A DNA stretch of 64,000 bases, from the NCBI RefSeq assembly GCF_058153355.1, contig NZ_CM177019.1, one strand, 5' to 3'. Below, in pieces: positions 23,868-64,000 of the stretch (positions are counted from its first letter, which is position 1; every line of letters begins with the position of its first letter). The notes under the pieces were generated by a model, which saw only the letters and a program-made list of their open reading frames with translations, was not told the origin of the DNA and searched no databases. The position numbers and the translations under genes are program-made.

Positions 23868-23874
23868 CGAATGA

Positions 23875-23925: not shown

Positions 23926-24106
23926 CGTGCCCGTTGGGAGGTTGTGCCGGATTGAACCAATTTCAAGTCCTGGCTGCCGGACGGGGGGTGCCGCAGGTGG
24001 TGCCCTGATCCGGAGAGCAACGTTTCGTACCAACATACGTAAACCAGTATCGACAGGCAGTGTAAGGGTAAGGTGCTGGTGTTGCGCTCCTTAATAAGGA
24101 GAGCGG

Positions 24107-24196: not shown

Positions 24197-24217
24197 CGGG
24201 CAAATTGAAACGCATCT

Positions 24218-24241
24218 AAGGGGGAATACCGTTTCCCCCTT
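24218..24241. terminator. GC-rich hairpin between the zorO-like ORF and the 3' end of yehK
   Basis: aagggggaa-taccg-ttccccctt 9-bp stem; flanking T tract is weak. Confidence 0.4.
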
Positions 24242-24249
24242 TAATAAAG

Positions 24250-24570: not shown

Positions 24571-24630
24571 CGCTTTTCCCGGTGGTAAGTCGTGTTGATA
24601 ACGGGCAGTCGCATCACTGCCCGCTGTGTT

Positions 24631-27600: not shown

Positions 27601-28287
27601 AAAATGAGTCCGCGGGCATTCAAGGCCTACCAACTCATTGGCGATTTCTGGTTTCTCCGGGAGGATGAGTGCAATAAAAGGACGGCGAACTTGGGGTAGT
27701 CCTGGCAGTGCGGCAATGAGTTTGTCGGCGCAACGCTGCCAGCAGCTTTCCTCTGCCAGAGAGAGAGGCTTACGCAGTCGGAGATCGAATTCGTTATAGG
27801 TTTCTGAGCGATAACCATAACCATAGCCATAGTCCTCCTTCTGATACTGCAATGTTACTACCAGAGGATCGTTCTCATAACACCGCGCAATAAACTGGCG
27901 TGCAATCACCACCTCAGTCGCATATTCCAGCCCCTCTTGTTGGACGATTTCGTCGAGCAACTGTTGGCTGTCATTTTGCGCGATACAGGCTAGCGCCGCC
28001 ATTGTCCGGGCCGGAATTGAGGGTTTGTGCTCGCCGATCAAGTTGATGGCTTGCGTAATGGCCGACTGCCACTCCAGTGAAAAATTTTCATAACGCCAGA
28101 CAATGTTTTTTTTCTTCTCAGCAATGTGTAGCAATTTATCACCCAGTGTCTGGATGAGGCTTTCAGTGATAACAGGCACCGGTTCGCCCGGCCAATTGCG
28201 ATGGCTGAGTGGTGTTTTGCCTTTTTTATATTTCAGTTCCAGTTGGGCGTTATCCGCCAGCCACGGTAATTCCTTGTCCATGCTCAT
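24631..28287 (-). CDS. yehI: Very large DUF4132-family protein, paralog of the two upstream MolR-like ORFs but lacking their N-terminal WGR-like domain
   Basis: 1218-aa ORF; central and C-terminal regions align visibly with the two upstream paralogs (for example …DFGPRQFTV.FDE.L.P… and …FADYE..PPF.QL…). Start lies 3 nt after the upstream gene's stop. Confidence 0.8.
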   Translation of the reverse strand: MSMDKELPWLADNAQLELKYKKGKTPLSHRNWPGEPVPVITESLIQTLGDKLLHIAEKKKNIVWRYENFSLEWQSAITQAINLIGEHKPSIPARTMAALACIAQNDSQQLLDEIVQQEGLEYATEVVIARQFIARCYENDPLVVTLQYQKEDYGYGYGYRSETYNEFDLRLRKPLSLAEESCWQRCADKLIAALPGLPQVRRPFIALILPEKPEIANELVGLECPRTHFHSKEWLKVVANDPRAVRKLERYWSQDIFSDREASYMSHENHFGYAACAALLREQGIAAVPRLAMYAHKEDCGSLLVQINHPQVIRILLLVADKNKPSLQRVAKYSKNFPHATLAALAELLALKAPPTRPGYPIIEDKKLPAQQKARDEYWRTLLQTLMASQPQLAEEVIPSLSTQARAVVNSYLSASPKPVIDSTDNSSLPEILVSPPWRGRKKASITHFSLPELTLVPQAYRSPNKHWTPEQQTAIDHFSAMSFDERLANRGADTFLRELGFEDHRWKFNEFILKGQLDALDTDQLETHTSVGRLLNYQAKQNENKHYREEAASALLAQDSVALMEGWRTFQRKFNYTDEKRWGVWNLYLIAQMPREMAVSCWQQIVAADFHYTGVEYLLSVLGTDALPGLITAFARHPKEIFPLLIHFGATELALPVARVWHRFAGQRNLARQWILQWPEHTATALIPLIFARSGDNSEAALSALRLLYEQGHGELLQTVANRWQHTDVWPALEQLLKQGPMDIYPARIPKAPDFWHPTMWSRPRIITNNQHVTDDALEIIGEMLRFTQGGRFYCGLEQLKTFCQPQTLAAFAWDLFTAWQQAGAPAKDNWAFLALSLFGDESTARDLTTQILAWPQEGKSARAVSGLNILTLMNNDMALIQLHHISQRAKSRPLRDNAAEFLQVVAENRGLSQEELADRLVPTLGLDDPQALIFDFGPRQFTVRFDENLNPVIFDQQNVRQKSVPRLRADDDQLKAPEALARLKGLKKDATQVSKNLLPRLETALRTTRRWSLADFHSLFVNHPFTRLVTQRLIWAVYPANEPRRLLNAFRVAAEGEFCNAQDEPIDLPADALIGIAHPLEMTAEMRSEFAQVFADYEIMPPFRQLMRRTVLLTPDESASNSLTRWEGKSATVGQLMGMRYKGWESGFEDACVYDLGEYRLVLKFSPGFNHYSADSKALMSFRSLRVYRDNKSVTFAELDTFDLSEALSAPDVIFH

Positions 28288-28290
28288 TCC

Positions 28291-31200: not shown

Positions 31201-32079
31201 TGCACATTTTTGCCAGAGAGACTCTTCCGCCAGTGATAAATGTTTCCGTAGGCGTAATTCAAAACTGGAATATTGCTGCAGGTTATCAGGTGCAATACCA
31301 GACGGCAGAATAATAATGGTATTATTCGCATAATCCCATTCAATATCAATCTGTTGAAGATGTATTACTACATCAGTAGCATATTCCAGGCCACCTTCCT
31401 GAACGAGCTGATCCATAACATCCTCACGCTCTTTATATCTCGTGCACTTCAGTTCAAGTGCCGTGAGTACAGCCATTACTGGTGATGGTAACTGTGTTGT
31501 TTTCAGGCAGTCGATCTGACTGAGCGCCTGGGAGATGGCGTTTTGCCATTCTAAAGAACAGGCGCTGAAGTCAAATGTGGCTGTTTTATTATCCCGTTGC
31601 AACACGCTACAGGCTAAGCGGCGTAACTGGGTCAATTCGTCTGCTTGCTGAACAGGAACTCCGGGAAAGCGGCGATGGCTTAACGTGGTGTGTACAACTT
31701 CGGGCGGAAAAACGACAGCAATATCTTTCGCCAGCCACGGTAAAACATCATCTGTATTTTTGTCAGCCACACGGGCTTCTGCTACGCAAAAGGGTTGTTC
31801 CTGAATAATGGTGGATAAGGCCGCTACCTTGAGAGAATCCGTTACCGTTTGGGAAGGTTGCAAAGAATTATCCTTCGCTTGCCCCACATACCCCTTCTTC
31901 ACCTTCTCCGCAATCAGCCTCAGTTCCGCTTTTTCCGCCGCCGCAGCATCAGCAAAGCTTTTTACCTGGCTTTGCCCGTTGGTACTGACTTTGCCCCAAC
32001 TAATATGCAGCTCGTTTCCCTGTTGCTCCACTGCCCAGAATTTATGTGATTTTTCGTCCTGATAAATATAGGTTTTCAT
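28291..32079 (-). CDS. MolR/YehH-family protein: N-terminal WGR-like domain plus DUF4132-type body (paralog A)
   Basis: 1262-aa ORF starting MKTYIYQDEKSHKFWAVEQQGNELHISWGKV…; ends …SVLDDITASELINDIEALFE. Its ribosome-binding site (AAGGAA) overlaps the stop of paralog B. Confidence 0.8.
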   Translation of the reverse strand: MKTYIYQDEKSHKFWAVEQQGNELHISWGKVSTNGQSQVKSFADAAAAEKAELRLIAEKVKKGYVGQAKDNSLQPSQTVTDSLKVAALSTIIQEQPFCVAEARVADKNTDDVLPWLAKDIAVVFPPEVVHTTLSHRRFPGVPVQQADELTQLRRLACSVLQRDNKTATFDFSACSLEWQNAISQALSQIDCLKTTQLPSPVMAVLTALELKCTRYKEREDVMDQLVQEGGLEYATDVVIHLQQIDIEWDYANNTIIILPSGIAPDNLQQYSSFELRLRKHLSLAEESLWQKCAQKLIAAIPHIPEWRQPLIALLLPEKPEIAHEIAQRLLGKKKLPSLEWLKIVATDEHILASLEKYHEPYAIFDDYYCGAILSATVLQEQGVAALPRFAPYAASDYCADVLRHINHPFALTLLIRVAGQTKRCHDRMTKACAAFPHAALAALAELLAQKEENTWRIMLMTMLISQPALAEQVTPWLSTAAVEVLKSCQQQLIQPSNHACAALLPAVLVLPPWLSKKKKSTIPVLDLAPLKLKSICTITDTEAKEFQTHWDWESHKPGEGAKDFLYSLGYRRWDFDTYKYIGASDSAIDAWEREDFATLIQMFKAHHAPYQGEWHLNSLPFLPMQTAIKLWEFLSKEPHTAVKPVMLYLRLAGMSGFLHSFSRYPQEGFAVANYFAATELAPAVARAFNKLKTLRQDARTWLLKYPEHAIIGLLPAALGKAGEAQDNARAALRMLIESGYPSLLQEIAQRYNQPEVTDAVNALLALDPLDNHPTKIPTLPAFYQPSLWTRPVLKANAQSLPDNALLHLGEMLRFPQEEALYAGLLQVKDACTADSLAEFAWDLFTAWQTAGAPSKESWAFTALGVLGNDDTARKLTPLIRAWPGESQHKRATVGLDILAAIGSDIALMQLNGIAQKLKFKALQERAKEKIADIAESRELTVAELEDRLAPDLGLDDNGSLLLDFGPRQFTVSFDETLKPFVRDASGSRLKDLPKPNKSDDETQANDAVNRYKLLKKDARTVAAQQVARLESAMCLRRRWSPENFQLFLVEHPLVCHLTRRLIWGIYSADNQLLACFRVAEDNSYSTADDDLFTLPEGDISVGIPHVLEISPTDAAAFGQLFADYELLPPFRQLDRNSYALTETERNASELTRWAGRKCPSGRVMGLANKGWMRGEPQDGGWIGWMIKPLGRWSLIMEIDEGFAVGMSPAELSAEQLLSKLWLWEGKAESYGWGINSTQEAQFSALDDITASELINDIEALFE

Positions 32080-32091
32080 TGCTAATTCCTT

Positions 32092-35000
32092 TTAATTAAA
32101 CAGTGATTCAATGTCGTTAATCAGCTCGCTGGCGGTGATGTCGTCGAGTACGGAGAAAGTGGGTGAGGATTGCTTACCATAGCGATCATAAGGGGCGATG
32201 ATTTTTACGCTTTCGACAGGCAGCAGGTCGCTATACCCCGTTTCGCCATAAATTAATGAAAAAGGTTCTGTTTCAAGTTCGAGAGCGCCATAAGGGGTAG
32301 ATTTGCGCATCGCATAGACGCTGCCGCTTTCTTCCAGACGTTGCCAGCCTCTGCGTTCCAGCCCGACAATGCGTCCGGCCTGGCAGAGACGTCCGTTCCA
32401 GCGTGACAATTCATGGACATTACGTTCGTTATCAGCAAGGTGGTAACTACCACGTTCGAGCTGTTGGAAGGGGGGAAGCAGTTCGTAATCAGCGTAAATT
32501 TGCCTGAATGCAGCGACAGATTCAGGGGGGATTTCCAGCATATGCGGAATACCGATGTTTCCTGCTGGTAGCGTGAATAGCTCATCCTGCATATCGCTGT
32601 AAGTGCTGTCTTCTGCGACCCGGAAGCAGGCAATCAGCGTGTTTTCCTCAGTATATACTCCCCATAACAGCCGTCGGGTTAAGTGACGTACCAGCGGATG
32701 CTCCACCAGAAACAGGCGGAACTGTTCTGCCGTCCAGCGTCTGCGCTGGCACATAGCCTGCTCCAGACGATCAATCTGCTGACTGGCAATGGCGCGCACA
32801 TCTTTCTTCAATTGTTTGAAGAGGTTAACGGCGTCAGTTGCCAGTGTTTTATCATCGCTCTGATTTGGTTTGGGTAAATCTTTCAGGACTTTGCCGTTTG
32901 CATCGCGCACTACAGGTTTTAAGGTTTCGTCAAAACCAACGGTGAATTGACGTGGGCCGAAATCCAGTATCAGCGAGCCACTGCTATCAAGCCCTAAATC
33001 TGGAGCCAGGCGGTCTTCCAGTTCAGCCATTGTCAGTCCGCGATTTTCGGCGACCATATTGATTTTGTCGCGGGCGTGTTCCTGCAATGCTTTGAATTTA
33101 ATTTTTTGTGCAATGCCATTAAGCAGCATCAGCGCAATATCGCTACCGATACTGGCTAACACATCCAGCCCAGAAACCGCACGTTTATGCTGGGATTCAC
33201 CCGGCCAGACCCGGATAAGCGGGGTTAGTTTACGCGCGGTGTCGTCATTGCCTAAAATCCCCAGCGAGGTAAATGCCCAGTTTTCTTTTGCGGGCGCGCC
33301 AGATTCCATCCATGCCGTGTAGAGATCCCAGCCAAAGTCAGCCAGTGATTCCCGGGTGAAGGTCTCTTTGATGATCGCCAGCCCAGCGTAGGAGGTAATG
33401 TCGCGTGGAAAGCTCAATATTGTGCCCAGGTGGCGCATAGCGTCATCGGGCAGAGGCAGGTTGTTACTTTTAAGCCGTGGTCTGCGCCATAAGGTGAACT
33501 GATAAAAGCCGGGCAGTGGGGCGATTTTTGCAGGATATTCTTCCAGTGGATCGCTATCGAACAATGTTGCCAGCGCAGCTAAAACATCAGGTTGATTATA
33601 TCCCCGGGCGATTTCCTCAATCGTTTCTCGCTGGTTTAAATTCACCAGCAGGCGAAGCGCCTGGCGGGCACAATCACGATCTTTTCCTTTTTTGCCCAGG
33701 GCCACAGGAAGTAGCCCGGCGGCGGCATGGTGTGGGAAGTTAGCCAGCCATTTTCGGGCATCTTCATAAGACATTTTTTTCTGTAATCGCTGCGCCATCG
33801 GTAATGCTAATTCGCTGACGCCCAGGAAAAGGGTGAATATCCACAACTGTTGTGGCTTACGTTGCAGACATTTCATAAACGCAGGAATGGCCGCATCACC
33901 AAAAATCGCCAGAATTTCTCTCTCGCCGGAGAATTGCTCTTCATTAATTATTTGATTGAGAAAAGAAATAGCATGCTGAGTGGGTAGGAAGCAGAGCGCG
34001 TACAACTGCCAGTGTCTGCTTCCTTTATTATGGTATTGCGCAAACTCTGCTTTCAGCGCGGGGAAATCGAAACGTAACAGGGCCTCAACTGCGCTTTGTG
34101 GCATTATTTTTTTTTCGTATTGTTCTTCTCCGGTTCTGCTCCATTCCTTAAACCCCAGTCGCCAAAGGATTTGCTGTTCTGGCGTTAAAGGGATGAAAGA
34201 CGTTTCCCAGCTTTCCTTTTCAATTAGTGGCAGATCGGTAAATAAGGTTTGCTGTGATGCCTGATATTTCGCGATTTCACTGAATCTGGATATGTCAGTG
34301 TGACTGATTAACTCTGTAATTCCAGGTGTGATGTCAGTGACGGAAGGGATGGGAAGTACCGGTAAATCAAATACGGGTATTACATTCTTTTTCTTATTTA
34401 TTGCCCACGGTGGAGCGACAAGCAGTTCTGGCAACATATTCGCAGTGGCATACTCACATTCTTTAGCTACTGACTGAGGACGACATTCAGATAAGATGCC
34501 TGCCGCTTTAGCATTAACCCAGGGAATGACGTCGCGTACTAACTCTGGCGTGACGGTAACCAGTTTGACAAGCGCGTTGCGCCACTGTGCATCTTCATGT
34601 ATTGCCAGCAAAGTAGCATAAGCGGCAATAGCCGCAGCGGGATGTTTTTGGCAGGCTTTGCTTAAGTATTCCAGGTGCTTTTTCTTGCCATTTACACCGA
34701 GGATCAGAATTTGAATCGCATCCGGGTGATTCGTTTTCCATAGCCATTTGACAAGATCTTCAGTCTCGCTGATGCGCTCGAAGAGATAAGTGGGATTGTC
34801 AGAATGCTCTTCCGTAAACTCAGTAAGTATCCGGCTTACACCGCGCCCCCCATTATTTGCCAGCAACATTGCCAGATAAGCGCGAAAATCACGATACAAC
34901 GGTGGGAAGTCGTATTTTTCTGCTGTAGTCAGAGCTATATCATCGGTTACTACCACTCTTAACCAGGTTATCGCCGGAACGTTTTGGTCTGCATAGCGTA

Positions 35001-35889
35001 GAGCCATAGCATTGGCAATATCCGGGCGTTCAGGGAGCAGTAACGCGGCAAAAGGTTGCCGTGCTGGGGATAGCGTCGGAATAGCAGTAAGCACTTTATC
35101 CACACAGCGTTGCCACTCATCTTCTGAAGCGAGTGAAAGATGATGACATAGACGTTGATGCCAACTCGGTAGCGATTCTGCTTCGTGATTAGGTGGAATG
35201 ATGGTGGTTACTGCGCCTTTTACTGGTTTATATTTGAGTTGAAGAGCGAGAAGGGCGATTTCAACGGCACTTTCCAGACCACAGCGAATGACTAAGTCAT
35301 CGACCAGTTCATCTTGAGAGTAAGAGTTCCAAAAGCCCCAGAGCAATGCCGCATCAGATTGCGCACTCCCTGTCTGTTTATTACCCAGAATTCGCATTTG
35401 TACCTCAGCAAAAGCCTGCTGCCAGTTTTCTGGATAAGAACGGTAATTGTTGTCGGGGTCATATGCCCTGGTGTTATTCGCGATGCGCTTCCATATTTGA
35501 CCATCTTTGTGCAGATAATTGATATCTCTGGGGCGAGAGCGATGTGGAAAAGCAAATCGGTTAATATCGTCGGTTAGCGGAATGACTGCATCATCAGCCA
35601 GCCATGGGCGTTTGTTTTTACTCTCGGGTGAAGTTTTAACGTCAGGAGTGACTTTGGTGACGGGGGATATATGCACGTTTGCCGAAGCGTCTTCCACATA
35701 GCCTTTTTTCGTTTTCTCTGCGATAAGCTTCAGTTCCGCTTTTTCCGCTGCTGCAGCATCAGCAAAATTTTTTACCTGGCTTTGCCCTTGGGTACCAACT
35801 TTTCCCCAACTGATATGCAAATCGTTACCTTGCTGCTCCACCGCCCAGAATTTATGCGATTTTTCGTCCTGAAAGATAAAGTGTCTCAT
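32092..35889 (-). CDS. MolR/YehH-family protein: N-terminal WGR-like domain plus DUF4132-type body (paralog B)
   Basis: 1265-aa ORF starting MRHFIFQDEKSHKFWAVEQQGNDLHISWGKV…; same architecture as paralog A, with a diverged middle and near-identical termini. Confidence 0.8.
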   Translation of the reverse strand: MRHFIFQDEKSHKFWAVEQQGNDLHISWGKVGTQGQSQVKNFADAAAAEKAELKLIAEKTKKGYVEDASANVHISPVTKVTPDVKTSPESKNKRPWLADDAVIPLTDDINRFAFPHRSRPRDINYLHKDGQIWKRIANNTRAYDPDNNYRSYPENWQQAFAEVQMRILGNKQTGSAQSDAALLWGFWNSYSQDELVDDLVIRCGLESAVEIALLALQLKYKPVKGAVTTIIPPNHEAESLPSWHQRLCHHLSLASEDEWQRCVDKVLTAIPTLSPARQPFAALLLPERPDIANAMALRYADQNVPAITWLRVVVTDDIALTTAEKYDFPPLYRDFRAYLAMLLANNGGRGVSRILTEFTEEHSDNPTYLFERISETEDLVKWLWKTNHPDAIQILILGVNGKKKHLEYLSKACQKHPAAAIAAYATLLAIHEDAQWRNALVKLVTVTPELVRDVIPWVNAKAAGILSECRPQSVAKECEYATANMLPELLVAPPWAINKKKNVIPVFDLPVLPIPSVTDITPGITELISHTDISRFSEIAKYQASQQTLFTDLPLIEKESWETSFIPLTPEQQILWRLGFKEWSRTGEEQYEKKIMPQSAVEALLRFDFPALKAEFAQYHNKGSRHWQLYALCFLPTQHAISFLNQIINEEQFSGEREILAIFGDAAIPAFMKCLQRKPQQLWIFTLFLGVSELALPMAQRLQKKMSYEDARKWLANFPHHAAAGLLPVALGKKGKDRDCARQALRLLVNLNQRETIEEIARGYNQPDVLAALATLFDSDPLEEYPAKIAPLPGFYQFTLWRRPRLKSNNLPLPDDAMRHLGTILSFPRDITSYAGLAIIKETFTRESLADFGWDLYTAWMESGAPAKENWAFTSLGILGNDDTARKLTPLIRVWPGESQHKRAVSGLDVLASIGSDIALMLLNGIAQKIKFKALQEHARDKINMVAENRGLTMAELEDRLAPDLGLDSSGSLILDFGPRQFTVGFDETLKPVVRDANGKVLKDLPKPNQSDDKTLATDAVNLFKQLKKDVRAIASQQIDRLEQAMCQRRRWTAEQFRLFLVEHPLVRHLTRRLLWGVYTEENTLIACFRVAEDSTYSDMQDELFTLPAGNIGIPHMLEIPPESVAAFRQIYADYELLPPFQQLERGSYHLADNERNVHELSRWNGRLCQAGRIVGLERRGWQRLEESGSVYAMRKSTPYGALELETEPFSLIYGETGYSDLLPVESVKIIAPYDRYGKQSSPTFSVLDDITASELINDIESLFN

Positions 35890-46566: not shown

Positions 46567-46839
46567 ATGTCTCATACAATCCGTGATAAACAGAAACTGA
46601 AAGCGCGTGCCAGTAAGATTCAGGGCCAGGTCGTGGCGCTCAAGAAAATGCTCGACGAGCCGCACGAATGCGCAGCTGTTCTACAACAGATTGCTGCTAT
46701 CCGTGGCGCGGTAAACGGCCTGATGCGCGAAGTGATTAAGGGGCATCTGACGGAACACATCGTTCACCAGGGGGATGAGCTAAAACGTGAAGAAGATCTG
46801 GATGTCGTTCTGAAGGTGCTGGATTCTTATATCAAATGA
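46567..46839 (+). CDS. rcnR: Ni/Co-responsive repressor (CsoR/RcnR family)
   Basis: 90-aa ORF recognised as RcnR. Confidence 0.9.
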
Positions 46840-46908
46840 AAGTGCCTAATATGGCCGTAGTTGAGGCAATAAATAGAGGGACAAGTGACGTTAAGCTGAA
46901 TTAGAGTA

Positions 46909-46932
46909 AATGGCGTGAGGACACACGCCATT
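46909..46932. terminator. Hairpin between rcnR and the convergent small-protein gene
   Basis: aatggcgtg-aggaca-cacgccatt. Confidence 0.4.
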
Positions 46933-46948
46933 CGAGGATATAGTTTGA

Positions 46949-47263
46949 TTAATTTTCGAAAAATTGCTTCACAGCCCAGCCACCATGACCACCTGGAGTT
47001 ATGAATGAAACAAAACCTTTGTCATCGACGCTCTGGATTTCTACTGTCATTGATTCATCTAACACGCGACATTTATTGGATGTAATGAGACTCAGCATAG
47101 CCTGTTGGTCATTGTCCTGGATGTAACTGATCATCTCGTAAAAGTCAGTTAACTTTTTACAGTTAAATGTACCTTCTTTAAGTGTTGCGCTGTCTCCGTG
47201 ACTTAGTGCGAATGCATTTGGCATCATTGCCACAAAGATGACGGTAACGAGTAGTTTTTTCAT
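46949..47263 (-). CDS. Small secreted hypothetical protein (104 aa)
   Basis: Signal peptide (MKKLLVTVIFVAMMPNAFA); lies in a visibly AT-rich segment. Confidence 0.55.
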   Translation of the reverse strand: MKKLLVTVIFVAMMPNAFALSHGDSATLKEGTFNCKKLTDFYEMISYIQDNDQQAMLSLITSNKCRVLDESMTVEIQSVDDKGFVSFITPGGHGGWAVKQFFEN

Positions 47264-47272
47264 TGTAGCCTC

Positions 47273-47620
47273 TTATAATTCAGAACATTCACTGATGTTG
47301 TAAGTGCCTTTTCTACCATCATCGTTTACGAGATGTAGCACGAAGATGATGGGATTGGCATCAATGAAAGATACAGAGACGTTCCCGCTTTCGGTGCTAT
47401 ACATCTTTGCAATCTGTTTTTCACCAATATATGAAAGATCCCAACTCACTCCGTTCAAGCTAAAATGCATCTGTTTGCCGTCAATATCGATGGAGGATTG
47501 TGCCGTAACGGTTTTCCCATTGCTGCCAATTTGACCCTGCTGAAGAGCATCACATTTATAGGAGCTTGCATAAGTAAATAGAGGTAGTAGCAGAAGTGCA
47601 GCAAAAATTTTACTCTTCAT
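47273..47620 (-). CDS. Small secreted hypothetical protein (115 aa)
   Basis: Signal peptide (MKSKIFAALLLLPLFTYASS), two Cys residues; 9 nt upstream of the 104-aa ORF, so probably a bicistron. Confidence 0.55.
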   Translation of the reverse strand: MKSKIFAALLLLPLFTYASSYKCDALQQGQIGSNGKTVTAQSSIDIDGKQMHFSLNGVSWDLSYIGEKQIAKMYSTESGNVSVSFIDANPIIFVLHLVNDDGRKGTYNISECSEL

Positions 47621-48258
47621 ATTTTCCCTTTGCTTGGATTTGAGTTACCTATTTTGGGGTAGTCATTATAAAACTATTAATTAGTAAAATGAACAAGTTT
47701 TCATTTGTTTAGTAATGGTATTGTTTAGGTTTGAAATTATTACGTACTTTCATAGCAATAGGTTGGATAAACAGCAGTTCAGAGAACAAGTTGCACTATC
47801 TACATACTTTCCCGCTTTCCATTGTATGTTAGGTAATAGATAGCCTTTGCCCGTAAGACTAAAAATATTAGAAATGACTCATTCGAATACCTTCTATTCA
47901 CCTTAATATAGGTTTGATTATTGTAATCGTTTAATGTGTCTTATGGATTTTTTCCTACTTTTCATTTGCATAATATAGGGGGCACAGCATGCTCTTGAAA
48001 TTAATTATTAAGATATTTAAATTTTACAGCACACAACTACTTTTCGTTGTCTTATGTGTTGAACGTACTTCGAGTATAGGTAGGGTTGTATATATATTGC
48101 GTGGGTAGAGTTAGAATAGAGGAGGCATCATTTATAGAATATTCAAGAACGTTAACCTGTGATCAATAAATAAAAATATCAAATGGTGTTCAAACATATT
48201 TTTCTATGAAAAATCCAGCCATCTATGATGAATTTTTAGATCCATTTTAATTAAAGTA

Positions 48259-48537
48259 TGATTATGAACCAATATTTAGCCAAGAATGGTGGTATAGCGC
48301 GTATCCAATGACACCGGAAAACGCATCTATGAAGTCCTTGTTTATCTCTATAAGAGGAAATCAACACTAATAAAATATAGTGATGTAACACATCGAGCAG
48401 GTTGCTCTGATGCTGGTCTTCAACTGTGGCTTAAACAGCTATCAAACTTCGGTGTTATTGAGATGAAAGAATTATCTTTCTCAACTTTCAATCTCAAAAA
48501 GCTAGAGGAAATAGACCTTAATTATTCCACTCTCTAA
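48259..48537 (+). pseudogene. Possible frameshifted gene remnant
   Basis: ATG-initiated frame MIMNQYLAKNGGIARIQ* continues after a +1 shift as …VSNDTGKRIYEVLVYLYKRKSTLIKYSDVTHRAGCSDAGLQLWLKQLSNFGVIEMKELSFSTFNLKKLEEIDLNYSTL*; no clean start or RBS for the long frame. Confidence 0.2.
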
Positions 48538-48673
48538 ACTTATCTCTTTATTTAAAGTAAAAATGAAAATATTATGGTATCAGCTACGTGGTGGTAACTG
48601 GTGTTTATGATCATAGGTACACATATACAGGGAACCCTGGAAAACAAAAGTAATATATTGATGATTTCGTTTG

Positions 48674-48913
48674 TTATAACTTCGTGGTATCAAGTCCGGC
48701 GGCTTTGAGTCGCTCGGTAAGATTTCTCATTTTGCTGAACTCTGTACCAAAGCTGGCTTTAAGTCCTACACCTTCGCAAAACTCTTTTGCCGTGACGTTT
48801 TTAAGATGGTCAGCGTATTTGATCATCTGGAGGTGCATTTCCATCGTTTGGCTATTTCGTGGTGCGCTGCTAATGGCTTGCTTAATGTTCTCGTAGATCT
48901 GGGTTTCTGTCAT
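48674..48913 (-). CDS. Hypothetical 79-aa protein
   Basis: Intact ORF (MTETQIYENIKQAISSAPRNSQ…) with AT-rich upstream region containing tandem direct repeats. Confidence 0.5.
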   Translation of the reverse strand: MTETQIYENIKQAISSAPRNSQTMEMHLQMIKYADHLKNVTAKEFCEGVGLKASFGTEFSKMRNLTERLKAAGLDTTKL

Positions 48914-48934
48914 TTTTTATCTCACCTATCAAAT

Positions 48935-48964
48935 TTAGATAAATAATATAAATTAGATAAATAA
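48935..48964. promoter_or_regulatory. Two direct repeats TTAGATAAATAA (18-bp register) just upstream of the 79-aa ORF
   Basis: Exact 12-nt repeats at 48935-48946 and 48953-48964. Confidence 0.3.
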
Positions 48965-49129
48965 GATAATCAATAGTTTTTACCATATGAATAATGGATG
49001 TGGATTGTTTCTTTTTCATTTCTGATATGGAGTACAAAATGGGGTCACAATGAAGAAGCGATGAATGGAGGCGAGCTTGCATCTGCAAGCCTCTTCCCCT
49101 AATCTGGCACAAAATATAGAGATTCAACC

Positions 49130-49258
49130 AAACGACTCGGGGTGCCCTTCTGCGTGAAGGCTGAGAAATACCCGTATCACCTGATCTGGATAATGCCAGC
49201 GTAGGGAAGTCACGGACCACCAGGTCATTGCTTCTTCACGTTATGGCAGGAGCAAACT
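49130..49258 (+). ncRNA. TPP (THI-box) riboswitch in the thiM leader
   Basis: cggggtgcccttctgcgtgaaggctgagaaatacccgtatcacctgatctggataatgccagcgtagggaa matches the canonical thiM aptamer; the expression platform runs into the thiM ribosome-binding site. Confidence 0.8.
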
Positions 49259-53464: not shown

Positions 53465-54465
53465 ACCGCCTCCCGTTGTTGGCGATACTTCGCCAGCGCC
53501 GTGGCGTAATGATTAAAATCAAGCTGATTTACCGCATCCAGCTCCGTCTTAAACGCAGGATCGATAGCGTTAACGCCATGCAATGCGCCGCAAATCGCCG
53601 TCGCCATAGCGCCGATGGTGTCTGTGTCGCCGCCAAGATTGGCGCACAGAATGGCGCAGCGATTCGGGTCGGTTTGTGCCAGTTCAACCAGCGCAATGGC
53701 GCACGGAACGGACTCAATAGTGCTGGTACCTGCGCCAATGACCTGGTAAAGCTGTTCGCTGGCGGATTCGGTGCCGTCGGCATTGCGCACAATTTTCAGC
53801 GCAATCTCCAGACGTGCTGCCAGTGAGGCGCTGAAGGTAGTGATGCGTTTTTGCTGTGCATGTCGCGCAATTGAAGGCAGTGAATCAACAATCGCTGACC
53901 AGCTTTCTCCGTCAATGGCACGAGAAACCGCCCATGCGATGACTACCGCGCCTGCCACCGCCAGATCGGATTTATGAGTCGGGCTGGACGCCAGCGCTAC
54001 ATCATCAATAAAGGAATCAACATCACGCGCCGGAAGCAAACAACCTAATGGCGAGACGCGCATCGCTGCGCCGTTAGTCACGCCATTGTTTTCCAGTTCA
54101 GCAACGGGTTTACCGTCGCGAATGGCGTTAAGCGCAATCTTCGAAGTTGGGCCAAGCACGTTTTTGTTAAAGGCGTTGAAACGCAGCGCCCAGTCGAGAA
54201 TATTACGCCCAATCAGATCCGGATCGATCTCGCCTTCACGTTCCAGTAACGCATCCGCCAGACACAGCGCCATTGAGGTATCGTCGGTGAATTCGGCGCG
54301 GTTAAAATAACAGGCCGCGTTATTCTCCTTTGGTCCAGGCAGAAAACGGTCAATCCAGCCAAAGTGTGCTTTAACGCGGCTGCGTGGCCAAAGCTCGGAG
54401 GGCATCCCCATCGCATCCCCTAACGCCTGCCCATAAAGAGCACCGAGAATACGTTCTGTTTTCAT
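53461..54465 (-). CDS. yegU: ADP-ribosylglycohydrolase-family protein
   Basis: 334-aa ORF with ADP-ribosylglycohydrolase-like N-terminus; ATGA overlap with yegV. Confidence 0.75.
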   Translation of the reverse strand: MKTERILGALYGQALGDAMGMPSELWPRSRVKAHFGWIDRFLPGPKENNAACYFNRAEFTDDTSMALCLADALLEREGEIDPDLIGRNILDWALRFNAFNKNVLGPTSKIALNAIRDGKPVAELENNGVTNGAAMRVSPLGCLLPARDVDSFIDDVALASSPTHKSDLAVAGAVVIAWAVSRAIDGESWSAIVDSLPSIARHAQQKRITTFSASLAARLEIALKIVRNADGTESASEQLYQVIGAGTSTIESVPCAIALVELAQTDPNRCAILCANLGGDTDTIGAMATAICGALHGVNAIDPAFKTELDAVNQLDFNHYATALAKYRQQREAV

Positions 54466-55739
54466 TTAACTTCCCCTTGTGTCAACGCAATATCGCGATC
54501 ATCGACCTTGATAGCCGTAATTTCGTTGTCGGATTCGCGGAAAAAAATCATGAACAGCACGGCGATAATGGCAATCATCACCGCGCCGAAAGTCCACATC
54601 CCGGACCAGTTGAAAGTCAGTCCGTTTACCGGTTCCGGATAAGCGAACATTTTCTCCATCATCACACCGCCAAGACGATAGCCGAGCAAACTGCCGAATC
54701 CCTGGCAGCAGAGCGTGATCAGCCCCTGCGCAGCGGTACGCATATGCACGGGGGCTTTTTTATCGACATAGATGTAAGCGGTAACGTAGTAAAAATCGTA
54801 ACTTACTCCATGCAGCAAAATGCCAAGGAACAGTAACGCGTAGGTGAAATATTCATCCGCACTACCGTAAATAAAGAAGCCATAGCGGATCGCAGCGGTG
54901 ACCAGACCAAGTAATAATACCTTTTTGATACCAAAGCGTTTGGTAAAAAACGGCAATGCCAGCATAAAGAAGATTTCAGAGAACTGGCCGAGCGTCATCC
55001 AGCCGGTGGCGTTTTTCATGCCGACTTCTGTCAGATAACCGTTGGCAAAGATGTAATAGAACGCCAGTGGCATCGCAAACAGGAATGAACAGAAGAAAAA
55101 GACGAGGAAGTTTTTATCGCGCAGCAGGATCAGCGCATCCAGGCCTAGCATGACTTTAATGTCCATTTTGCCGGTGCTTTTTGGCGGCGTGTCGGGCAGG
55201 AAAAACGCAAACACACCGAGTAATGCGGAGCTTCCGGCGGTAATTAATAGTGGAATATTGGTCGGTGAGATATCGTCATATCCCAGCATCTGAGGCAGGA
55301 ATCCGCAGACCAGGCCAGAGGCAATCCAGCCTATAGTCCCCAGTACGCGAATGCGCGGAAAATCGCGCTCCACATCCGGGACGTTAGCAAACGCGATGCT
55401 GTTAGTCAGCGCAATGGTCGGCATATAGGTCAATGAGTAGGCCAGCAGTAACGGGAAGAACCCGGCAAAAGTAGTCTGTTGCGCAGCGAAATACATCAGC
55501 ACCGCACCAGCGAACATCAATACCGCCAGCACTTTCTGCGCCGAGAAAAAGCGGTCAGTGATGGAGCCAACCAGAATTGGCGACAGGATCGCCGCAATGG
55601 CGGTACAGGCATACGACCAGCCAATTTCCCCGGCACTAAAACCGCTTTTACTTAACCACAACCACAATGGCACAAACCACGCGCCCCAGATAAACCATTC
55701 AACAAACATCATGAACGACAGCTTTGCTGTTGTTTTCAT
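54462..55739 (-). CDS. yegT: Nucleoside:H+ symporter-family transporter (MFS)
   Basis: 425-aa 12-TM ORF; ATGA overlap with yegU. Confidence 0.8.
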   Translation of the reverse strand: MKTTAKLSFMMFVEWFIWGAWFVPLWLWLSKSGFSAGEIGWSYACTAIAAILSPILVGSITDRFFSAQKVLAVLMFAGAVLMYFAAQQTTFAGFFPLLLAYSLTYMPTIALTNSIAFANVPDVERDFPRIRVLGTIGWIASGLVCGFLPQMLGYDDISPTNIPLLITAGSSALLGVFAFFLPDTPPKSTGKMDIKVMLGLDALILLRDKNFLVFFFCSFLFAMPLAFYYIFANGYLTEVGMKNATGWMTLGQFSEIFFMLALPFFTKRFGIKKVLLLGLVTAAIRYGFFIYGSADEYFTYALLFLGILLHGVSYDFYYVTAYIYVDKKAPVHMRTAAQGLITLCCQGFGSLLGYRLGGVMMEKMFAYPEPVNGLTFNWSGMWTFGAVMIAIIAVLFMIFFRESDNEITAIKVDDRDIALTQGEVK

Positions 55740-55995
55740 CTTTTAATTCCTTCATGACAGGTAATGTAAGGTACGCGATGACAATACCATTTAATAATAC
55801 CTTTTAAATACCTTTGCGGTGAAAACTTGACCGCGGTAACATTTTTTCTGATGAATCGAGCCAACAGAAAACGCTGAAAAAACATCCAAAAGATGGAAAA
55901 ACTCGCCTGTAACGACCAGGATTATGATTGCCCGCAAAAGGCGGGCCAGGACAATCCATAGCCGATATCCAATCGGAATTTACGGGAGCATAGTA

Positions 55996-57048
55996 ATGAC
56001 AGATATTGCGCAGTTGCTTGGCAAAGACGCCGACAACCTTTTACAGCACCGTTGTATGACTATTCCTTCTGACCAGCTTTATCTCCCCGGACATGACTAC
56101 GTAGACCGCGTGATGATTGACAATAATCGCCCGCCAGCGGTGTTACGTAATATGCAGACGTTGTACAACACCGGGCGCCTGGCTGGCACAGGATATCTTT
56201 CTATTCTGCCGGTTGACCAGGGCGTTGAGCACTCTGCCGGAGCTTCATTTGCCGCTAACCCGCTCTACTTTGACCCGAAAAACATTGTTGAACTGGCGAT
56301 CGAAGCGGGCTGTAACTGTGTGGCGTCAACCTACGGCGTGCTGGCATCGGTATCGCGGCGTTACGCGCATCGCATTCCATTCCTCGTCAAACTTAATCAC
56401 AACGAGACGCTAAGTTACCCGAATACCTACGATCAAACGCTGTATGCCAGCGTGGAGCAGGCGTTCAACATGGGCGCGGTGGCGGTTGGCGCGACCATCT
56501 ATTTTGGCTCGGAAGAGTCACGTCGCCAGATTGAAGAAATTTCTGCGGCCTTTGAACGTGCGCACGAACTGGGCATGGTGACCGTGCTGTGGGCCTATTT
56601 GCGTAACTCCGCCTTTAAGAAAGATGGCGTTGATTACCATGTTTCCGCCGACCTGACAGGTCAGGCGAACCATCTGGCGGCAACCATAGGTGCAGATATC
56701 GTCAAACAAAAAATGGCGGAAAATAACGGCGGTTATAAAGCGATTAATTACGGTTATACCGACGATCGCGTGTACAGCAAGTTGACCAGCGAAAACCCGA
56801 TTGATCTGGTGCGTTATCAGTTAGCTAACTGCTATATGGGCCGGGCAGGGTTGATAAACTCCGGCGGTGCTGCAGGCGGTGAAACTGACCTCAGCGATGC
56901 AGTGCGTACTGCGGTCATCAACAAACGCGCTGGCGGAATGGGGCTGATTCTTGGACGTAAGGCGTTCAAGAAATCGATGGCTGACGGCGTGAAACTGATT
57001 AACGCCGTGCAGGACGTTTATCTCGATAGCAAAATTACTATCGCCTGA
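55996..57048 (+). CDS. fbaB: Class I fructose-bisphosphate aldolase
   Basis: 350-aa ORF; start at [11 protein letters not shown]… with GGGAG upstream. Confidence 0.9.
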
Positions 57049-57064
57049 TACGCCTCATACGAAC

Positions 57065-57210
57065 AGCACTACCCCGTAGGGCGGATAAGGCGTTCACACC
57101 GCATCCGGCAACCTATGCCTGATGCGACGCTGAAGCGTCTTATCATGCCTACACAGCGCTGCCACGTATGCCGGATAAGGCGTTTACGTTGCATCTGGCA
57201 TAAAAACACG
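57065..57210. repeat. REP/BIME cluster (about three REP units) after fbaB
   Basis: Repeated ggataaggcgtt(c/t)ac(a/g)c(c/t)gcatc(c/t)ggca and tgcctgatgcgacgc units. Confidence 0.55.
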
Positions 57211-57217
57211 CGCACTT

Positions 57218-57248
57218 CGTTACGGCTTCCCCCGGGAGGCCGTTTTTT
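57218..57248 (+). terminator. Rho-independent terminator
   Basis: cggcttccc-cc-gggaggccg stem followed by eight T. Confidence 0.6.
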
Positions 57249-57298
57249 TTACCTGTCATTCTGATTAATTTTCATATTGTCGTTTTTGTGATCGTTAT

Positions 57299-58232
<934 letters not shown>

Positions 58233-58233
58233 A

Positions 58234-59510
<1,277 letters not shown>

Positions 59511-59519
59511 GGACGGTAT

Positions 59520-59969
59520 ATGACTAACCTGTTTGTTCGTAGCGGAATTTCTTTTGTCGATCGTAGCGAAGTTTTAACCCATATCGGTAATGAGATGATC
59601 GCGAAAGGTGTGGTTCATGAAACCTGGCCACAGGCATTAATTGCCAGAGAAGCAGAATTCCCCACCGGGATAATGCTTGAACAGCACGCCATTGCAATAC
59701 CGCATTGTGAGGCGATTCATGCTAAGTCGTCAGCTATTTATCTGTTAAGACCGGCGAATAAAATAAAGTTTCAGCAAGCTGATGATGATAACGACGTGGC
59801 GGTGTCGTTGATTATCGCGCTGATTGTCGAAAATCCGCAGCAGCAACTGAAGCTTTTGCGGTGCTTATTTGGCAAGTTGCAGCAACCAGATATCGTTGAA
59901 ACGCTAATCACCATTTCTGAATCGCAATTAAAGGAATATTTCACACAGCATATTTTAGATTCCGAATAA
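59520..59969 (+). CDS. gatA: Galactitol PTS enzyme IIA
   Basis: 149-aa ORF with PTS IIA-like sequence. Confidence 0.85.
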   Translation: MTNLFVRSGISFVDRSEVLTHIGNEMIAKGVVHETWPQALIAREAEFPTGIMLEQHAIAIPHCEAIHAKSSAIYLLRPANKIKFQQADDDNDVAVSLIIALIVENPQQQLKLLRCLFGKLQQPDIVETLITISESQLKEYFTQHILDSE

Positions 59970-60003
59970 CCAAAAACCTCTGTACCAATAAAAAGGATTG
60001 ATT

Positions 60004-60294
60004 ATGAAACGCAAGATAATTGTCGCTTGCGGAGGCGCGGTTGCGACCTCTACGATGGCGGCGGAAGAAATTAAAGAGTTGTGCCATAGCCATAATATCC
60101 CCGTTGAAGTAATCCAGTGTCGGGTTAATGATAATGAAATAGAAACCTATATGGATGGCGTACATCTTATTTGTACTACCGCCAGAGTTGACCGCAGTTT
60201 TGGCGATATTCCGTTAGTTCACGGCATGCCTTTTGTTTCTGGTGTCGGTATCGAAGCATTACAAAATAAAATTCTGACTATCTTACAGGGGTGA
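60004..60294 (+). CDS. gatB: Galactitol PTS enzyme IIB
   Basis: Small ORF with the active-site Cys near the N-terminus ([16 protein letters not shown]…). Confidence 0.85.
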
Positions 60295-60297
60295 CCT

Positions 60298-61653
60298 ATG
60301 TTTTCAGAAGTCATGCGTTATATTCTCGACCTCGGCCCTACGGTCATGTTGCCGATTGTCATCATTATTTTTTCTAAGATATTAGGCATGAAGGCAGGCG
60401 ATTGCTTTAAAGCGGGTCTGCATATCGGGATTGGCTTTGTTGGTATCGGCCTGGTGATTGGCTTAATGCTGGATTCCATTGGCCCGGCGGCGAAAGCAAT
60501 GGCGGAAAATTTCGACCTGAATCTGCATGTGGTCGATGTCGGCTGGCCGGGCTCTTCACCAATGACCTAGGCGTCGCAAATTGCGCTGGTGGCGATTCCG
60601 ATTGCGATTCTGGTTAACGTGGCGATGCTACTGACCCGTATGACGCGGGTGGTAAATGTTGATATATGGAATATCTGGCATATGACCTTCACCGGCGCAT
60701 TGCTGCATCTGGCAACCGGTTCATGGATGATAGGGATGGCGGGTGTGGTAATTCACGCGGCGTTTGTTTATAAGCTCGGCGACTGGTTTGCCCGCGATAC
60801 CCGAAATTTCTTTGAGCTGGAAGGCATTGCTATTCCGCACGGTACGTCGGCGTATCTGGGGCCAATTGCGGTGCTGGTCGATGTTATCATCGAGAAAATC
60901 CCAGGGGTTAACCGTATTAAATTTAGCGCCGACGATATTCAGCGCAAATTTGGCCCATTTGGCGAACCTGTCACCGTGGGCTTTGTGATGGGGCTGATTA
61001 TCGGCATCCTCGCGGGTTACGATGTCAAAGGTGTATTACAGCTGGCGGTAAAAACGGCGGCAGTTATGCTGCTGATGCCACGGGTGATTAAACCCATCAT
61101 GGATGGTTTAACGCCCATCGCTAAGCAGGCCCGTAGTCGTTTACAGGCGAAGTTCGGCGGTCAGGAGTTCCTGATTGGCCTTGATCCGGCGTTGCTGCTG
61201 GGGCATACGGCGGTGGTATCGGCAAGCCTGATTTTTATCCCGCTCACCATTTTAATTGCTGTTTGTGTTCCGGGTAATCAGGTACTGCCGTTTGGCGACC
61301 TTGCCACCATCGGCTTCTTTGTTGCGATGGCAGTTGCCGTGCATCGTGGAAATCTGTTCCGCACCTTAATCTCGGGTGTCATCATTATGAGCATCACCCT
61401 GTGGATCGCGACGCAAACTATTGGTTTGCACACCCAACTGGCGGCTAATGCTGGGGCGTTAAAAGCCGGGGGCATGGTGGCTTCAATGGATCAGGGCGGT
61501 TCTCCCATTACCTGGTTACTGATTCAGGTTTTCTCCCCGCAAAATATTCCCGGTTTCATTATTATCGGTGCCATTTATCTTACCGGTATTTTCATGACCT
61601 GGCGTAGAGCGCGCGGCTTTATTAAACAAGAGAAAGCCGTTCTCGCAGAATAA
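60298..61653 (+). pseudogene. gatC: Galactitol PTS enzyme IIC interrupted by an in-frame TAG at codon 91
   Basis: The two track ORFs 60298..60570 and 60589..61653 are in the same frame and separated only by TAG at 60568-60570 (…GWPGSSPMT*ASQIALVAIPIAILVN…). Confidence 0.8.
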
Positions 61654-61700
61654 TTTTTACCTGAGGGGGAGTTTATCCCCCTTAATAATCAGGAGTTTTT

Positions 61701-62205
61701 ATGAAATCAGTGGTGAATGATACTGATGGTATCGTACGCGTTGCCCAACGAGTCATTCCTGAAATTAAACATCAGGATGAGGTGCGGGTAAAAATTGCCA
61801 GCTCGGGATTATGTGGTTCCGATTTACCCAGAATTTTTAAAAATGGTGCACATTATTATCCAATAACGTTAGGCCATGAATTTAGCGGCTATATTGATGC
61901 TGTGGGATCCGGTGTTGATGATTTACATCCTGGCGATGCGGTTGCCTGTGTGCCGTTATTACCCTGTTTTACTTGTCCAGAGTGTCTGAAAGGGTTTTAT
62001 TCCCAGTGCGCAAAATATGATTTTATTGGCTCACGGCGTGATGGTGGGTTTGCCGAATATATTGTCGTTAAGCGGAAAAATGTCTTTGCTCTACCTGCGC
62101 ATATGCCTATTGAGGATGGGGCTTTTATTGAACCGATTACCGTTGGCCTGCATGCTTTCCATTTAGCGCAAGGTTGTGAGAATAAAAACGTTATTATTAT
62201 TGGTG
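61701..62205 (+). pseudogene. gatD: Galactitol-1-phosphate dehydrogenase, 5' fragment, truncated by IS4
   Basis: Zn-dependent alcohol dehydrogenase N-terminus (…GLCGSDLPR…HEFSGY…) ending …ENKNVIIIG at the IS junction. Confidence 0.85.
62193..62205. repeat. Target-site duplication, left copy (ATTATTATTGGTG)
   Basis: Identical 13-bp sequence recurs at 63632-63644, immediately flanking the IS. Confidence 0.8.
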
Positions 62206-63631
62206 TAATGCCAGTCAGTTAAGCAACTGACTGGCTCTTTTTCGGGGCTGTGGGGTATTTCCAGGGCCTCTCCTTTACCACTCTCGGGAAGGCCCTTTCC
62301 CTTCTTGTCGGTAATTTCACAAGTTGTCCCATACTTGCAAGATCGCGCATCAGCTCCGGTATACGTCCCGGTGAAGCGCCCTGCAATGTCATCAGCATTC
62401 TCATCACCATTCCGCATGATTCTGAGAAACTCAGTTGATTCGGCCAGTAACCTTTCAGATGTTCCGCCATTTTAATCATCTGATATCTCACCAGATTATA
62501 AGCCAGTAAGACACCCCACAGCTCTTGCTCCACAAGCTCCGGCTTTTTACTTCTCAGCGTCAGCCTGCTCAGTTGCATCGTCTGTTTTATCTCCCTGTAT
62601 CCCAGTTCGATTTCCCAGCGATGACTGTACAGATCCGCCATTTCTCCTCCGGGGAAGCGCATGGCGTCCGTCATCGACGTCAGCAGATGGCAGACTTTTC
62701 CTTTGCGCGTCACGGTCAGCAGGCGGGCTGTCACTTCATTTCCCAGTCCCGGCCACTTTTTTCGTGCCTGCGGGCTGGTTTTCAGCTTCACCAGATGATC
62801 GCCTTTACCCAGTTTTCTGATCTCTTCATATTGCGCTCCCTTTCTGAGAGGTATCATCCAGTGGCGGTGTTCTCCCGCCAGGCTCCAGGCATTTAACAGT
62901 CCCAGTGAGTAATAACCTTTATCCATTAACGTCAGAGTGTTATCGCCGGTTTGTTCTATAAGTTGCTCAGCAAGCTCATTTTCGCTGTTCTTCATCGTGC
63001 CGAAGGCTGCAGCCGTCAGCAGATGGCTGGTCAGTTCCATCTGGCAGACCATTTTGACCTGCGGGTAGAGCGCCGGGTTCCCGGCATGTGTCTGGCGGGG
63101 GAAGGCTGCATCGTTCTCTGGTGTATCCGGTGTGCGCCAGAACACACCATCGATGGCCAGCAGGGTCAGGCCGCACCAGTGCGGATGCGGCGTGGCGTTA
63201 TGCCAGAGCTGCGCTGTTTTCGTGAACACGCGGCGGACAGCCTCACTTCCCAGGCGCTGGCGGGCCTGAATAACGGCACTGGGGGCAACGAAGGGGCGAT
63301 TGCCCGGCAGCATGATGTCCAGGCGATTCACAATCTGGTGAAGAGGTTCTTTACGCTCAAGCGCCATGCCAACAATACACCAGACCATCATTTCGAGGGG
63401 AAGACGGCGCTTGCGTAGCGTTACAGTACCTGATTCGGCAAGGCAACGAGAGATGAGTTCGGGGTCGAGGTAATCCCCCAGAGAAGTCAGTGGGTTACGC
63501 AGAGAATCGTAACGGGATACCAGATCAAGAGCCTGTCCAATGTGCATAAAAAAATCCGGAAACAAGTGAGCGTTTCCGGATTCTTACACAGCCACTGGAT
63601 CGGTCAACTGATCCTTAACTGATCGGCATTA
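62206..63631 (-). mobile_element. IS4 insertion sequence (1426 bp)
   Basis: 18-bp imperfect terminal inverted repeats (taatgccagtcagttaag versus reverse complement taatgccgatcagttaag, 16/18), a single transposase ORF, 13-bp direct target duplication. Confidence 0.85.
62219..63547 (-). CDS. insG: IS4 DDE transposase
   Basis: 442-aa ORF from [15 protein letters not shown]…, recognised as the IS4 transposase. Confidence 0.85.
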
Positions 63632-63644
63632 ATTATTATTGGTG
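63632..63644. repeat. Target-site duplication, right copy (ATTATTATTGGTG)
   Basis: Exact repeat of 62193-62205. Confidence 0.8.
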
Positions 63645-64000
63645 CCGGAACCATTGGCCTGCTGGCCATTCAGTGCGCTGTCGCGCTGGGAGCAAAGAGT
63701 GTGACGGCTATCGACATTAGCTCAGAAAAACTGGCACTGGCAAAATCTTTCGGTGCGATGCAAACATTTAACAGCCTTGAAATGAGCGCGCCGCAAATGC
63801 AGCCCGTTTTACGCGAGCTGCGCTTTAATCAGCTTATCCTCGAGACGGCTGGCGTCCCGCAAACCGTCGAACTGGCGGTAGAGATTGCCGGGCCTCATGC
63901 CCAGCTGGCGCTGGTGGGCACGTTGCATCAGGATCTGCATTTAACATCGACAACGTTTGGCAAAATATTACGTAAAGAGCTGACGGTTATCGGCAGTTGG
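63632..64000 (+). pseudogene. gatD: Galactitol-1-phosphate dehydrogenase, 3' fragment (continues beyond the window)
   Basis: Reading frame resumes …IIIGAGTIGLLAIQCAVALGAKSVTAIDISSEKLALAKSFGA… (Rossmann GxGxxG). Confidence 0.85.

Follow-up and report, generated by a model that had tools for sequence, protein, structure and literature searches.

The question raised by this locus is whether an in-frame stop codon in gatC, the gene for the galactitol PTS EIIC component, represents a genuine loss of the permease and, if so, how such an allele came about and how it relates to other inactive gatC alleles of Escherichia and Shigella. The gene is located in a 64-kb stretch of DNA (64,000 nt; contig NZ_CM177019.1 of assembly GCF_058153355.1), which was analysed over its whole length and is referred to below as the window.

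A single amber codon interrupts gatC

The gatC frame extends over 451 codons from the ATG at 60298 to a TAA whose last base is 61653, and translation reveals a single internal stop, the in-frame TAG at 60568-60570. The interrupted gene comprises the following features:

60298..61653, plus strand: gatC (galactitol PTS EIIC) pseudogene, full-length frame with one internal stop, from translation
60568..60570, plus strand: amber codon 91, TGG to TAG, with G to A at window position 60569 (gatC nt 272); former Dcm site CCTGG at nt 269-273, now CCTAG
60298..60570, plus strand: N-terminal remnant ORF, 90 aa, covering model positions 1-82 of 407 and 2 of about 10 hydrophobic segments
60589..61653, plus strand: C-terminal remnant ORF, 354 aa, with a GTG start, a by-product of the stop

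The initial annotation, made from the sequence alone, had described a single in-frame amber at codon 91 and had taken TGG to be the ancestral codon. Both points were borne out. The peptide around the stop reads ...SSPMT, stop, ASQIALVAIPIAIL..., as quoted there, and codon 91 is TGG in the closest intact gatC as well as in 5,056 complete E. coli genomes. Among the 5,426 complete E. coli genomes, the closest intact allele is that of E. coli R32_14_1F (locus L001), with 5 differences over 1359 nt (99.6% identity); the alignment with intact gatC that had been proposed as a check contains no gaps, and the TGG-to-TAG change at gatC nt 272 is one of the five differences. A 55-mer centred on the codon-91 base, in which any 28-nt seed is forced to span that base, matched 5,056 of the 5,426 genomes in its TGG form and none of them in its TAG form. 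A TAG-form 40-mer likewise had no match among species-representative genomes, indicating that the allele is absent from the GTDB representatives. W91 is conserved in the solved GatC structure 9u82, and the internal stop occupies a position that is a sense codon in orthologues, as in a nonsense pseudogene.

The same stop codon is present in independent assemblies

A trivial explanation would be a miscalled A at a position that is truly G (TGG), such as may result from methylation-motif errors at Dcm sites in long-read data. CCWGG-type methylation motifs are prone to systematic long-read basecalling errors, and the changed gatC base indeed sits within such a motif. However, the identical TAG is found in two independent read-archive assemblies. 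The SRR31441161 assembly (L010/L019) is 100% identical to the window over positions 53701-62231 and breaks 26 nt inside the IS4 element described below, the pattern of short-read graph assemblies at repeats, and the SRR28786219 assembly (L018) matches the window at 100% across 11,617 + 369 nt; both carry the TAG. There is no general miscalling of the methylation motif either, since the window contains 163 CCWGG and only 3 CCTAG motifs, and the occurrence of the TAG form in 0 of 5,426 complete E. coli genomes argues against a platform-wide artefact at codon 91. Furthermore, the W91 amber allele has also been deposited for Shigella dysenteriae 1617 and occurs on 410 contigs from many sources. 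A miscall at this base is accordingly a most improbable explanation; judging from these assemblies, the codon-91 TAG is not a sequencing or assembly error.

Predicted effect on the galactitol permease

The family identity of the interrupted gene is clear. The intact allele that differs from it by 5 nt reaches 709.8 bits with TIGR00827 (EIIC-GAT; cut-off 542.2), the gatC product matches the solved GatC structure 9u82 with E = 7e-244, and the two gatC fragments of the window match TIGR00827 model positions 1-82 and 90-407. A single G-to-A transition converted Trp-91 (TGG) into the amber codon (TAG), and translation is predicted to end after the first two hydrophobic segments, leaving 82 of the 407 family-model positions. 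No galactitol EIIC permease would then be made, and the strain would neither take up nor phosphorylate galactitol. On these grounds, we infer that the gatC allele is null.

Alternatively, gatC might still function, either by readthrough of the UAG, with a suppressor tRNA or naturally, or as a split permease composed of the 90-aa product and a re-initiated 354-aa product. The GTG of the 354-aa ORF is in frame, 18 nt past the TAG, and this ORF on its own reaches the family cut-off (546 bits against 542), its exact product being found on only 3 contigs, read from read-archive assemblies; in addition, the sister strain represented by L018 retains the rest of the operon together with an intact gatR. 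Nevertheless, no tRNA genes were found within the 64-kb window, and inspection of the sequence upstream of the GTG at 60589 revealed no obvious Shine-Dalgarno sequence. In E. coli, termination is efficient at a UAG with G as the next base. Moreover, an IS4 copy could subsequently persist in gatD of this clone, as expected of an operon that was already useless, and the W91 amber of the S. dysenteriae type resides in an operon riddled with IS1 copies, frame breaks, and a second stop. Retention of function thus appears very unlikely, and we proceed with gatC as a null allele. The initial annotation held that the gene would be functional only with amber suppression. This stands in so far as GatC could at best be restored in this way, but does not extend to the pathway: because gatD is broken by IS4, amber suppression alone would not restore galactitol use in this strain.

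Stepwise decay of the gat operon

The genomic neighbourhood of gatC contains the following features:

57365..60294, plus strand: gatY, gatZ, gatA, and gatB, upstream of gatC in the same operon, all frames intact
57365-58219, plus strand: gatY
58248-59510, plus strand: gatZ
59520-59969, plus strand: gatA
about 60004-60294, plus strand: gatB
61701..62205, plus strand: 5′ part of gatD (galactitol-1-phosphate 5-dehydrogenase), codons 1-168, then running into IS4; PRK10309 positions 1-169 of 347
62193..62205, no strand: left copy of a 13-bp target-site duplication, ATTATTATTGGTG
62206..63631, minus strand: complete IS4 of 1,426 bp inside gatD, with terminal inverted repeats beginning TAATGCC; NF033592
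62219-63565, minus strand: IS4 transposase ORF
63632..63644, no strand: right copy of the 13-bp target-site duplication, ATTATTATTGGTG
63632..64000, plus strand: 3′ part of gatD, running to the end of the window

All gat neighbours, that is, gatY, gatZ, gatA, and gatB on the 5′ side and gatD on the 3′ side, give NCBIfam equivalog matches, and the gat region is collinear with annotated E. coli loci. The splitting of gatD by an insertion sequence is a point absent from the initial annotation. IS4 is a 1,426-bp element that generates target duplications of 11-13 bp. The gatD insert is 1,426 bp long, has inverted repeats, encodes an IS4 transposase (NF033592 IS4 family, 304 bits), is accompanied by a 13-bp duplication, and is 99.9% identical to annotated IS4 copies.

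The relative timing of the two lesions can be read from the sister locus L018, which carries the TAG, lacks IS4, and is otherwise identical to the window, with full-length gatD (346 aa) and gatR (259 aa) genes. The stop therefore came first and IS4 represents later decay; on this comparison, the insertion in gatD is a very recent second hit. The operon is thus decaying stepwise, through a point mutation in gatC and then IS4 in gatD. The 64-kb window contains this one IS element, and 41 of the 43 genes annotated in the closest collinear genome, E200086, are intact in it; the damage is specific to the gat operon, given that gatC and gatD are the only broken genes among the 43 checked. Acquisition of IS4 in gatD after the stop, with the other checked genes of the window intact, is the pattern of relaxed constraint on the operon.

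The divergence from E200086 is uneven along the operon. At 59520-60294, gatA is only 91.4% identical to that of E200086 and gatB is 95.2% identical with a 6-nt indel, unlike gatC (99.3%) and the 5′ part of gatD (100%). Such a sharp mosaic boundary within the operon suggests recombination between gat alleles.

Other features of the window

Several features outside the gat operon set the window apart from E200086 and MG1655. At 17702-34045, yehQ, yehP, yehM, and yehL, together with three tandem ORFs at the position of yehH/yehI, are present and open; the tandem ORFs (24631-28287, 28291-32079, and 32092-35889, minus strand) encode products of 1,218-1,265 aa. The yeh stretch is deleted in E200086, with only partial SWIM and WGR pseudogenes left, and yehH is a pseudogene in MG1655. 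Compared with K-12, a run of three intact giant paralogues is unusual. Approximately 2.3 kb between rcnR and the thiM riboswitch (46838-49124) do not align to MG1655; in E200086, this segment encodes a small outer-membrane protein, a hypothetical protein, and an HTH-like fragment, and it looks like a strain-variable islet. Two RNA elements scored above the Rfam gathering score: a TPP riboswitch upstream of thiM (49128-49224) and naRNA4, a REP-derived nucleoid-associated RNA, in the fbaB-gatY intergenic region (57079-57149).

Relation to K-12 and to other lineages

Identity between the window and MG1655 amounts to 95.1% across 54.7 kb; among complete E. coli genomes, the best match reaches 98.1% across 21 kb, and most do not exceed 96%. 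By these identities, the window genome is not a K-12 stock. The values of 95.1% and 98.1% are compatible with either a poorly sampled Escherichia lineage or an unusually polymorphic chromosomal region. A classical Shigella was also considered as the source and seems unlikely, given the single IS in 64 kb and the intact frames of 41 among the 43 genes checked.

The initial annotation took the gatC lesion of a common K-12 stock to be a frameshift and thus different from the one described here, which proved correct: b2092 of MG1655 is a RefSeq pseudogene that is 2 nt longer than intact alleles (1361 versus 1359 nt, with one 2-nt gap), whereas the window gatC aligns to intact alleles without gaps and accordingly is not the K-12 frameshift allele. 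The same gene and operon are inactivated in both cases, resulting in a galactitol-uptake-negative genotype, but the MG1655 gene has a 2-nt frameshift in a sequence that differs by approximately 2%, as opposed to a nonsense codon in the window. The remainder of the pathway differs as well, K-12 having gatR::IS3 and an intact gatD, whereas the window has IS4 in gatD and its sister strain retains an intact gatR. The further proposal that the window carries an independent inactivating allele holds, as the MG1655 lesion is different, with the qualification that the allele is not private but occurs on 410 contigs. Taken together, the window very probably carries a genuine loss-of-function allele of gatC from a natural, non-K-12 Escherichia lineage, in which the stop came first and IS4 later.

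Another parallel is offered by the split gatC of S. dysenteriae type 1 (strain 1617, AHA65885.1) and other Shigella-type genomes, which have the identical TGG-to-TAG change at codon 91 and the same 90-aa product. However, the gatC background of the S. dysenteriae type is 46 nt from that of the window, and decay of its operon is far more advanced, with IS1 insertions, a split gatZ, truncated gatA and gatB, and a second amber codon at W406. Given that the nearest intact alleles of the Shigella-type genes differ from that of the window gene, the two ambers have independent origins. In L003, L005, and L007 (CP061527.1, CP026777.1, and CP026878.1), which are of the S. dysenteriae type, gatZ is split and separated from gatA by an IS1, gatA and gatB are shortened, and gatC has two ambers, W91 and W406, both at Dcm sites; in L003, another IS1 follows gatC where gatD would be. 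Decay of the gat operon extends to a more distant Escherichia lineage: at L033 (GCA_949813155.1), gatC is 108-119 nt from the other alleles, has a stop at codon 83 (TAG) and later frame damage, and is accompanied by a split gatZ.

Recurrent loss of gatC

The exact 90-aa product was found in 535 indexed blocks and on 410 contigs, including that of S. dysenteriae 1617. Carriers of the W91 amber comprise Shigella-type genomes and a small number of other lineages, but no complete genome under the name E. coli; the literature searched contained no previous account of the allele itself. All retrieved W91 amber loci read ACC-TAG-GCG, but the retrieved alleles differ from that of the window at 39-52 nt and from each other at 10-44 nt. 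Compared with intact alleles, the distances are much shorter:

L004: nearest intact allele AR_0017, 1 nt (the TAG base alone)
L009: nearest intact allele strain 104, 1 nt (the TAG base alone)
L002: nearest intact allele 214-4, 4 nt
L006: nearest intact allele 2014C-3011, 6 nt
window: nearest intact allele R32_14_1F, 5 nt

Because each TAG allele is much nearer to an intact allele than to the other TAG alleles, the W91 amber arose at least 5 times. The alternative is a single origin followed by spread among gatC backgrounds through short-tract recombination. The gat region is highly polymorphic and mosaic, with gatA 91% and gatC 99% identical to the same reference, and no clade marker separates the window allele across gatC nt 157-330, so that a tract under 175 bp is possible for the window. 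However, in two of the TAG alleles the TAG base is the sole difference from an intact allele, and a private SNP of L004 8 nt upstream of it (nt 264) confines the tract boundary to a 7-nt interval. At least 5 separate transfers would be needed, each without a marker. In addition, stops at W83 and W163 recur by different base changes (TGA and TAG), showing that independent mutation is common in gatC. A single origin is thus improbable, and we favour repeated mutation at codon 91.

Nonsense alleles of gatC are not restricted to this codon. In a survey with composite queries (25-nt flanks and N spacers, with no 28-mer shared with the wild type), 10 different transition-nonsense alleles turned up, in 31 of approximately 5,080 complete E. 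coli genomes. Each of the 8 early truncation products tested was also present, on 62-410 contigs, with the following counts for stops at the given residue:

W83: 249 contigs
W91: 410 contigs
Q94: 62 contigs
W124: 99 contigs
W127: 76 contigs
W143: 88 contigs
W163: 141 contigs
R169: 217 contigs

Among the matches listed, the stops at W83, which is not in a Dcm context, comprise six TGA and two TAG codons and fall on 5-8 distinct gatC backgrounds, compared with 5-7 for the W91 amber; W163 stops include both TAG and TGA on near-identical backgrounds, and the R169 stop is clonal. Since W83 stops recur as widely as the W91 amber, recurrence is a property of gatC nonsense alleles in general. As far as predicted products are concerned, the survey shows that gatC loss is common, yet usually rare within E. 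coli proper.

Dcm context of codon 91

The ancestral sequence at gatC nt 269-273 is the Dcm site CCTGG, and G272A corresponds to a C-to-T change at the inner cytosine on the bottom strand. Because the mutated base pairs with the methylated cytosine of the Dcm site, deamination of 5-methylcytosine is a likely origin of the change, and a Dcm origin of the W91 base change is plausible from its sequence context. Of the five Dcm sites in gatC, three overlap a Trp codon that the same kind of change would turn into amber (W91, W406, and W435), and natural TAG alleles exist at all three. The W406 amber, which is the second stop of the S. dysenteriae-type alleles, is also found in E. coli PCN061 and E4, with gatC genes 33-35 nt from those alleles, and arose at least twice independently. 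The W435 amber is present in 7.1994/NIST0056 and in five genomes with the same hit pattern. RefSeq annotates the W435 amber allele of E. coli 7.1994/NIST0056 (locus L020; NZ_CP116241.1) as an ordinary gatC CDS of 434 aa instead of a pseudogene; the last 17 residues of GatC are absent from its product. Conversely, TAG alleles were found at none of the six non-Dcm Trp codons in approximately 5,080 complete genomes.

Dcm sites are established hotspots of G:C-to-A:T transitions and of amber mutations (PMC12606429, PMC13250602, PMC3527292). A close precedent is provided by the lacI amber hotspots (Coulondre et al. 1978, reviewed in PMC12606429), at which the same G:C-to-A:T change at the second C of CC(A/T)GG yields UAG. 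However, the approximately 10-fold excess in lacI was measured in a defined dcm+ strain, whereas a possible gatC hotspot is deduced from context, with no site-specific excess in the controls.

Could the recurrence of the W91 amber then be driven mainly by a Dcm hotspot, that is, by deamination escaping very-short-patch repair, rather than by sampling plus selection? The base change is exactly the one predicted, TAG is found at 3 of 3 Dcm-context Trp codons (with W406 hit at least twice) against 0 of 6 non-Dcm codons in the approximately 5,080 genomes, truncation at W91 is the commonest early truncation product, and hotspot behaviour at Dcm sites has been established in the laboratory (PMC12606429, PMC13250602). 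Several observations count against this reading. The stop at the non-Dcm codon W83 is equally recurrent, and the contig counts for W91 and W83 (410 versus 249) differ only 1.6 times. Transitions at inner positions of Dcm sites showed no excess between the window and E200086 across 46 kb of natural divergence (5/242 versus 645/22,740), in a test that is crude in that codon position was uncontrolled. In the complete-genome survey, 2 of 3 Dcm sites and 8 of 29 non-Dcm sites had matches when all transitions were considered, a difference that is not significant; for TAG only, the figures were 2 of 3 Dcm against 0 of 6 non-Dcm Trp codons, with p of about 0.08. The W91 TAG itself is absent from the 5,056 complete E. 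coli genomes. The recurrence of W91, initially taken as strong evidence of a Dcm hotspot, was downgraded after the like-for-like control with W83, W163, and R169 stops. We regard a mainly Dcm-driven recurrence as possible, at rather less than an even chance. The broader proposition that W91, W406, and W435 are methylation-dependent weak points behind much of the parallel gatC loss in Shigella and some E. coli is somewhat unlikely. If it is true, the lacI amber hotspots would have an equivalent in natural populations, in a gene on which selection in the gut is known to fluctuate, and loss of galactitol uptake would be unusually accessible. The Dcm context thus offers a cheap, testable hypothesis on mutation bias shaping which null alleles appear, although the controls indicate that such bias is not required by the data.

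Selection on gat and implications

When K-12 colonises the mouse gut, gat-negative mutants are selected quickly and time and again, many through lesions in gatC, and galactitol metabolism can be growth-inhibitory (PMC5850726, PMC10878103). The window allele resembles these gut-selected mutants (Barroso-Batista/Sousa et al., PMC5850726; PMC10878103) in that gatC loss is recurrent among them and includes stop-gain changes. However, the experiments employed K-12 with constitutive gat expression (gatR::IS), whereas the window allele comes from a wild lineage with gatR intact in the sister strain; hence, the K-12-specific reason for selection, namely, constitutive expression, does not apply. The gut-evolved lesions comprise 1-bp insertions, IS insertions, and stops at other positions (PMC5850726, PMC10878103). 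Two listed stop-gain gatC changes are G to A on the reference strand (PMC10878103); provided that this reference has gatC on its minus strand, like MG1655, these are C-to-T changes in the gene and not TGG to TAG. Loss of galactitol uptake would seem, from the published gut-evolution experiments, to be repeatedly tolerated or favoured, and in the window lineage it may have been either selected or neutral.

For annotation purposes, both gatC and gatD are pseudogenes in this genome, none of the remnant ORFs (90, 354, and 173 aa) counts as a gene, and the strain is predicted to be galactitol (dulcitol)-negative. The locus also represents a two-step decay of a pathway in which the order of events, point mutation first and IS insertion second, is resolved through a sister strain. 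The window allele is a case of ordinary sugar-pathway loss, as has occurred repeatedly in E. coli and Shigella, and strengthens the case for gatC as one of the most frequently inactivated sugar-transport genes of Escherichia/Shigella, with several nonsense alleles of multiple independent origin.
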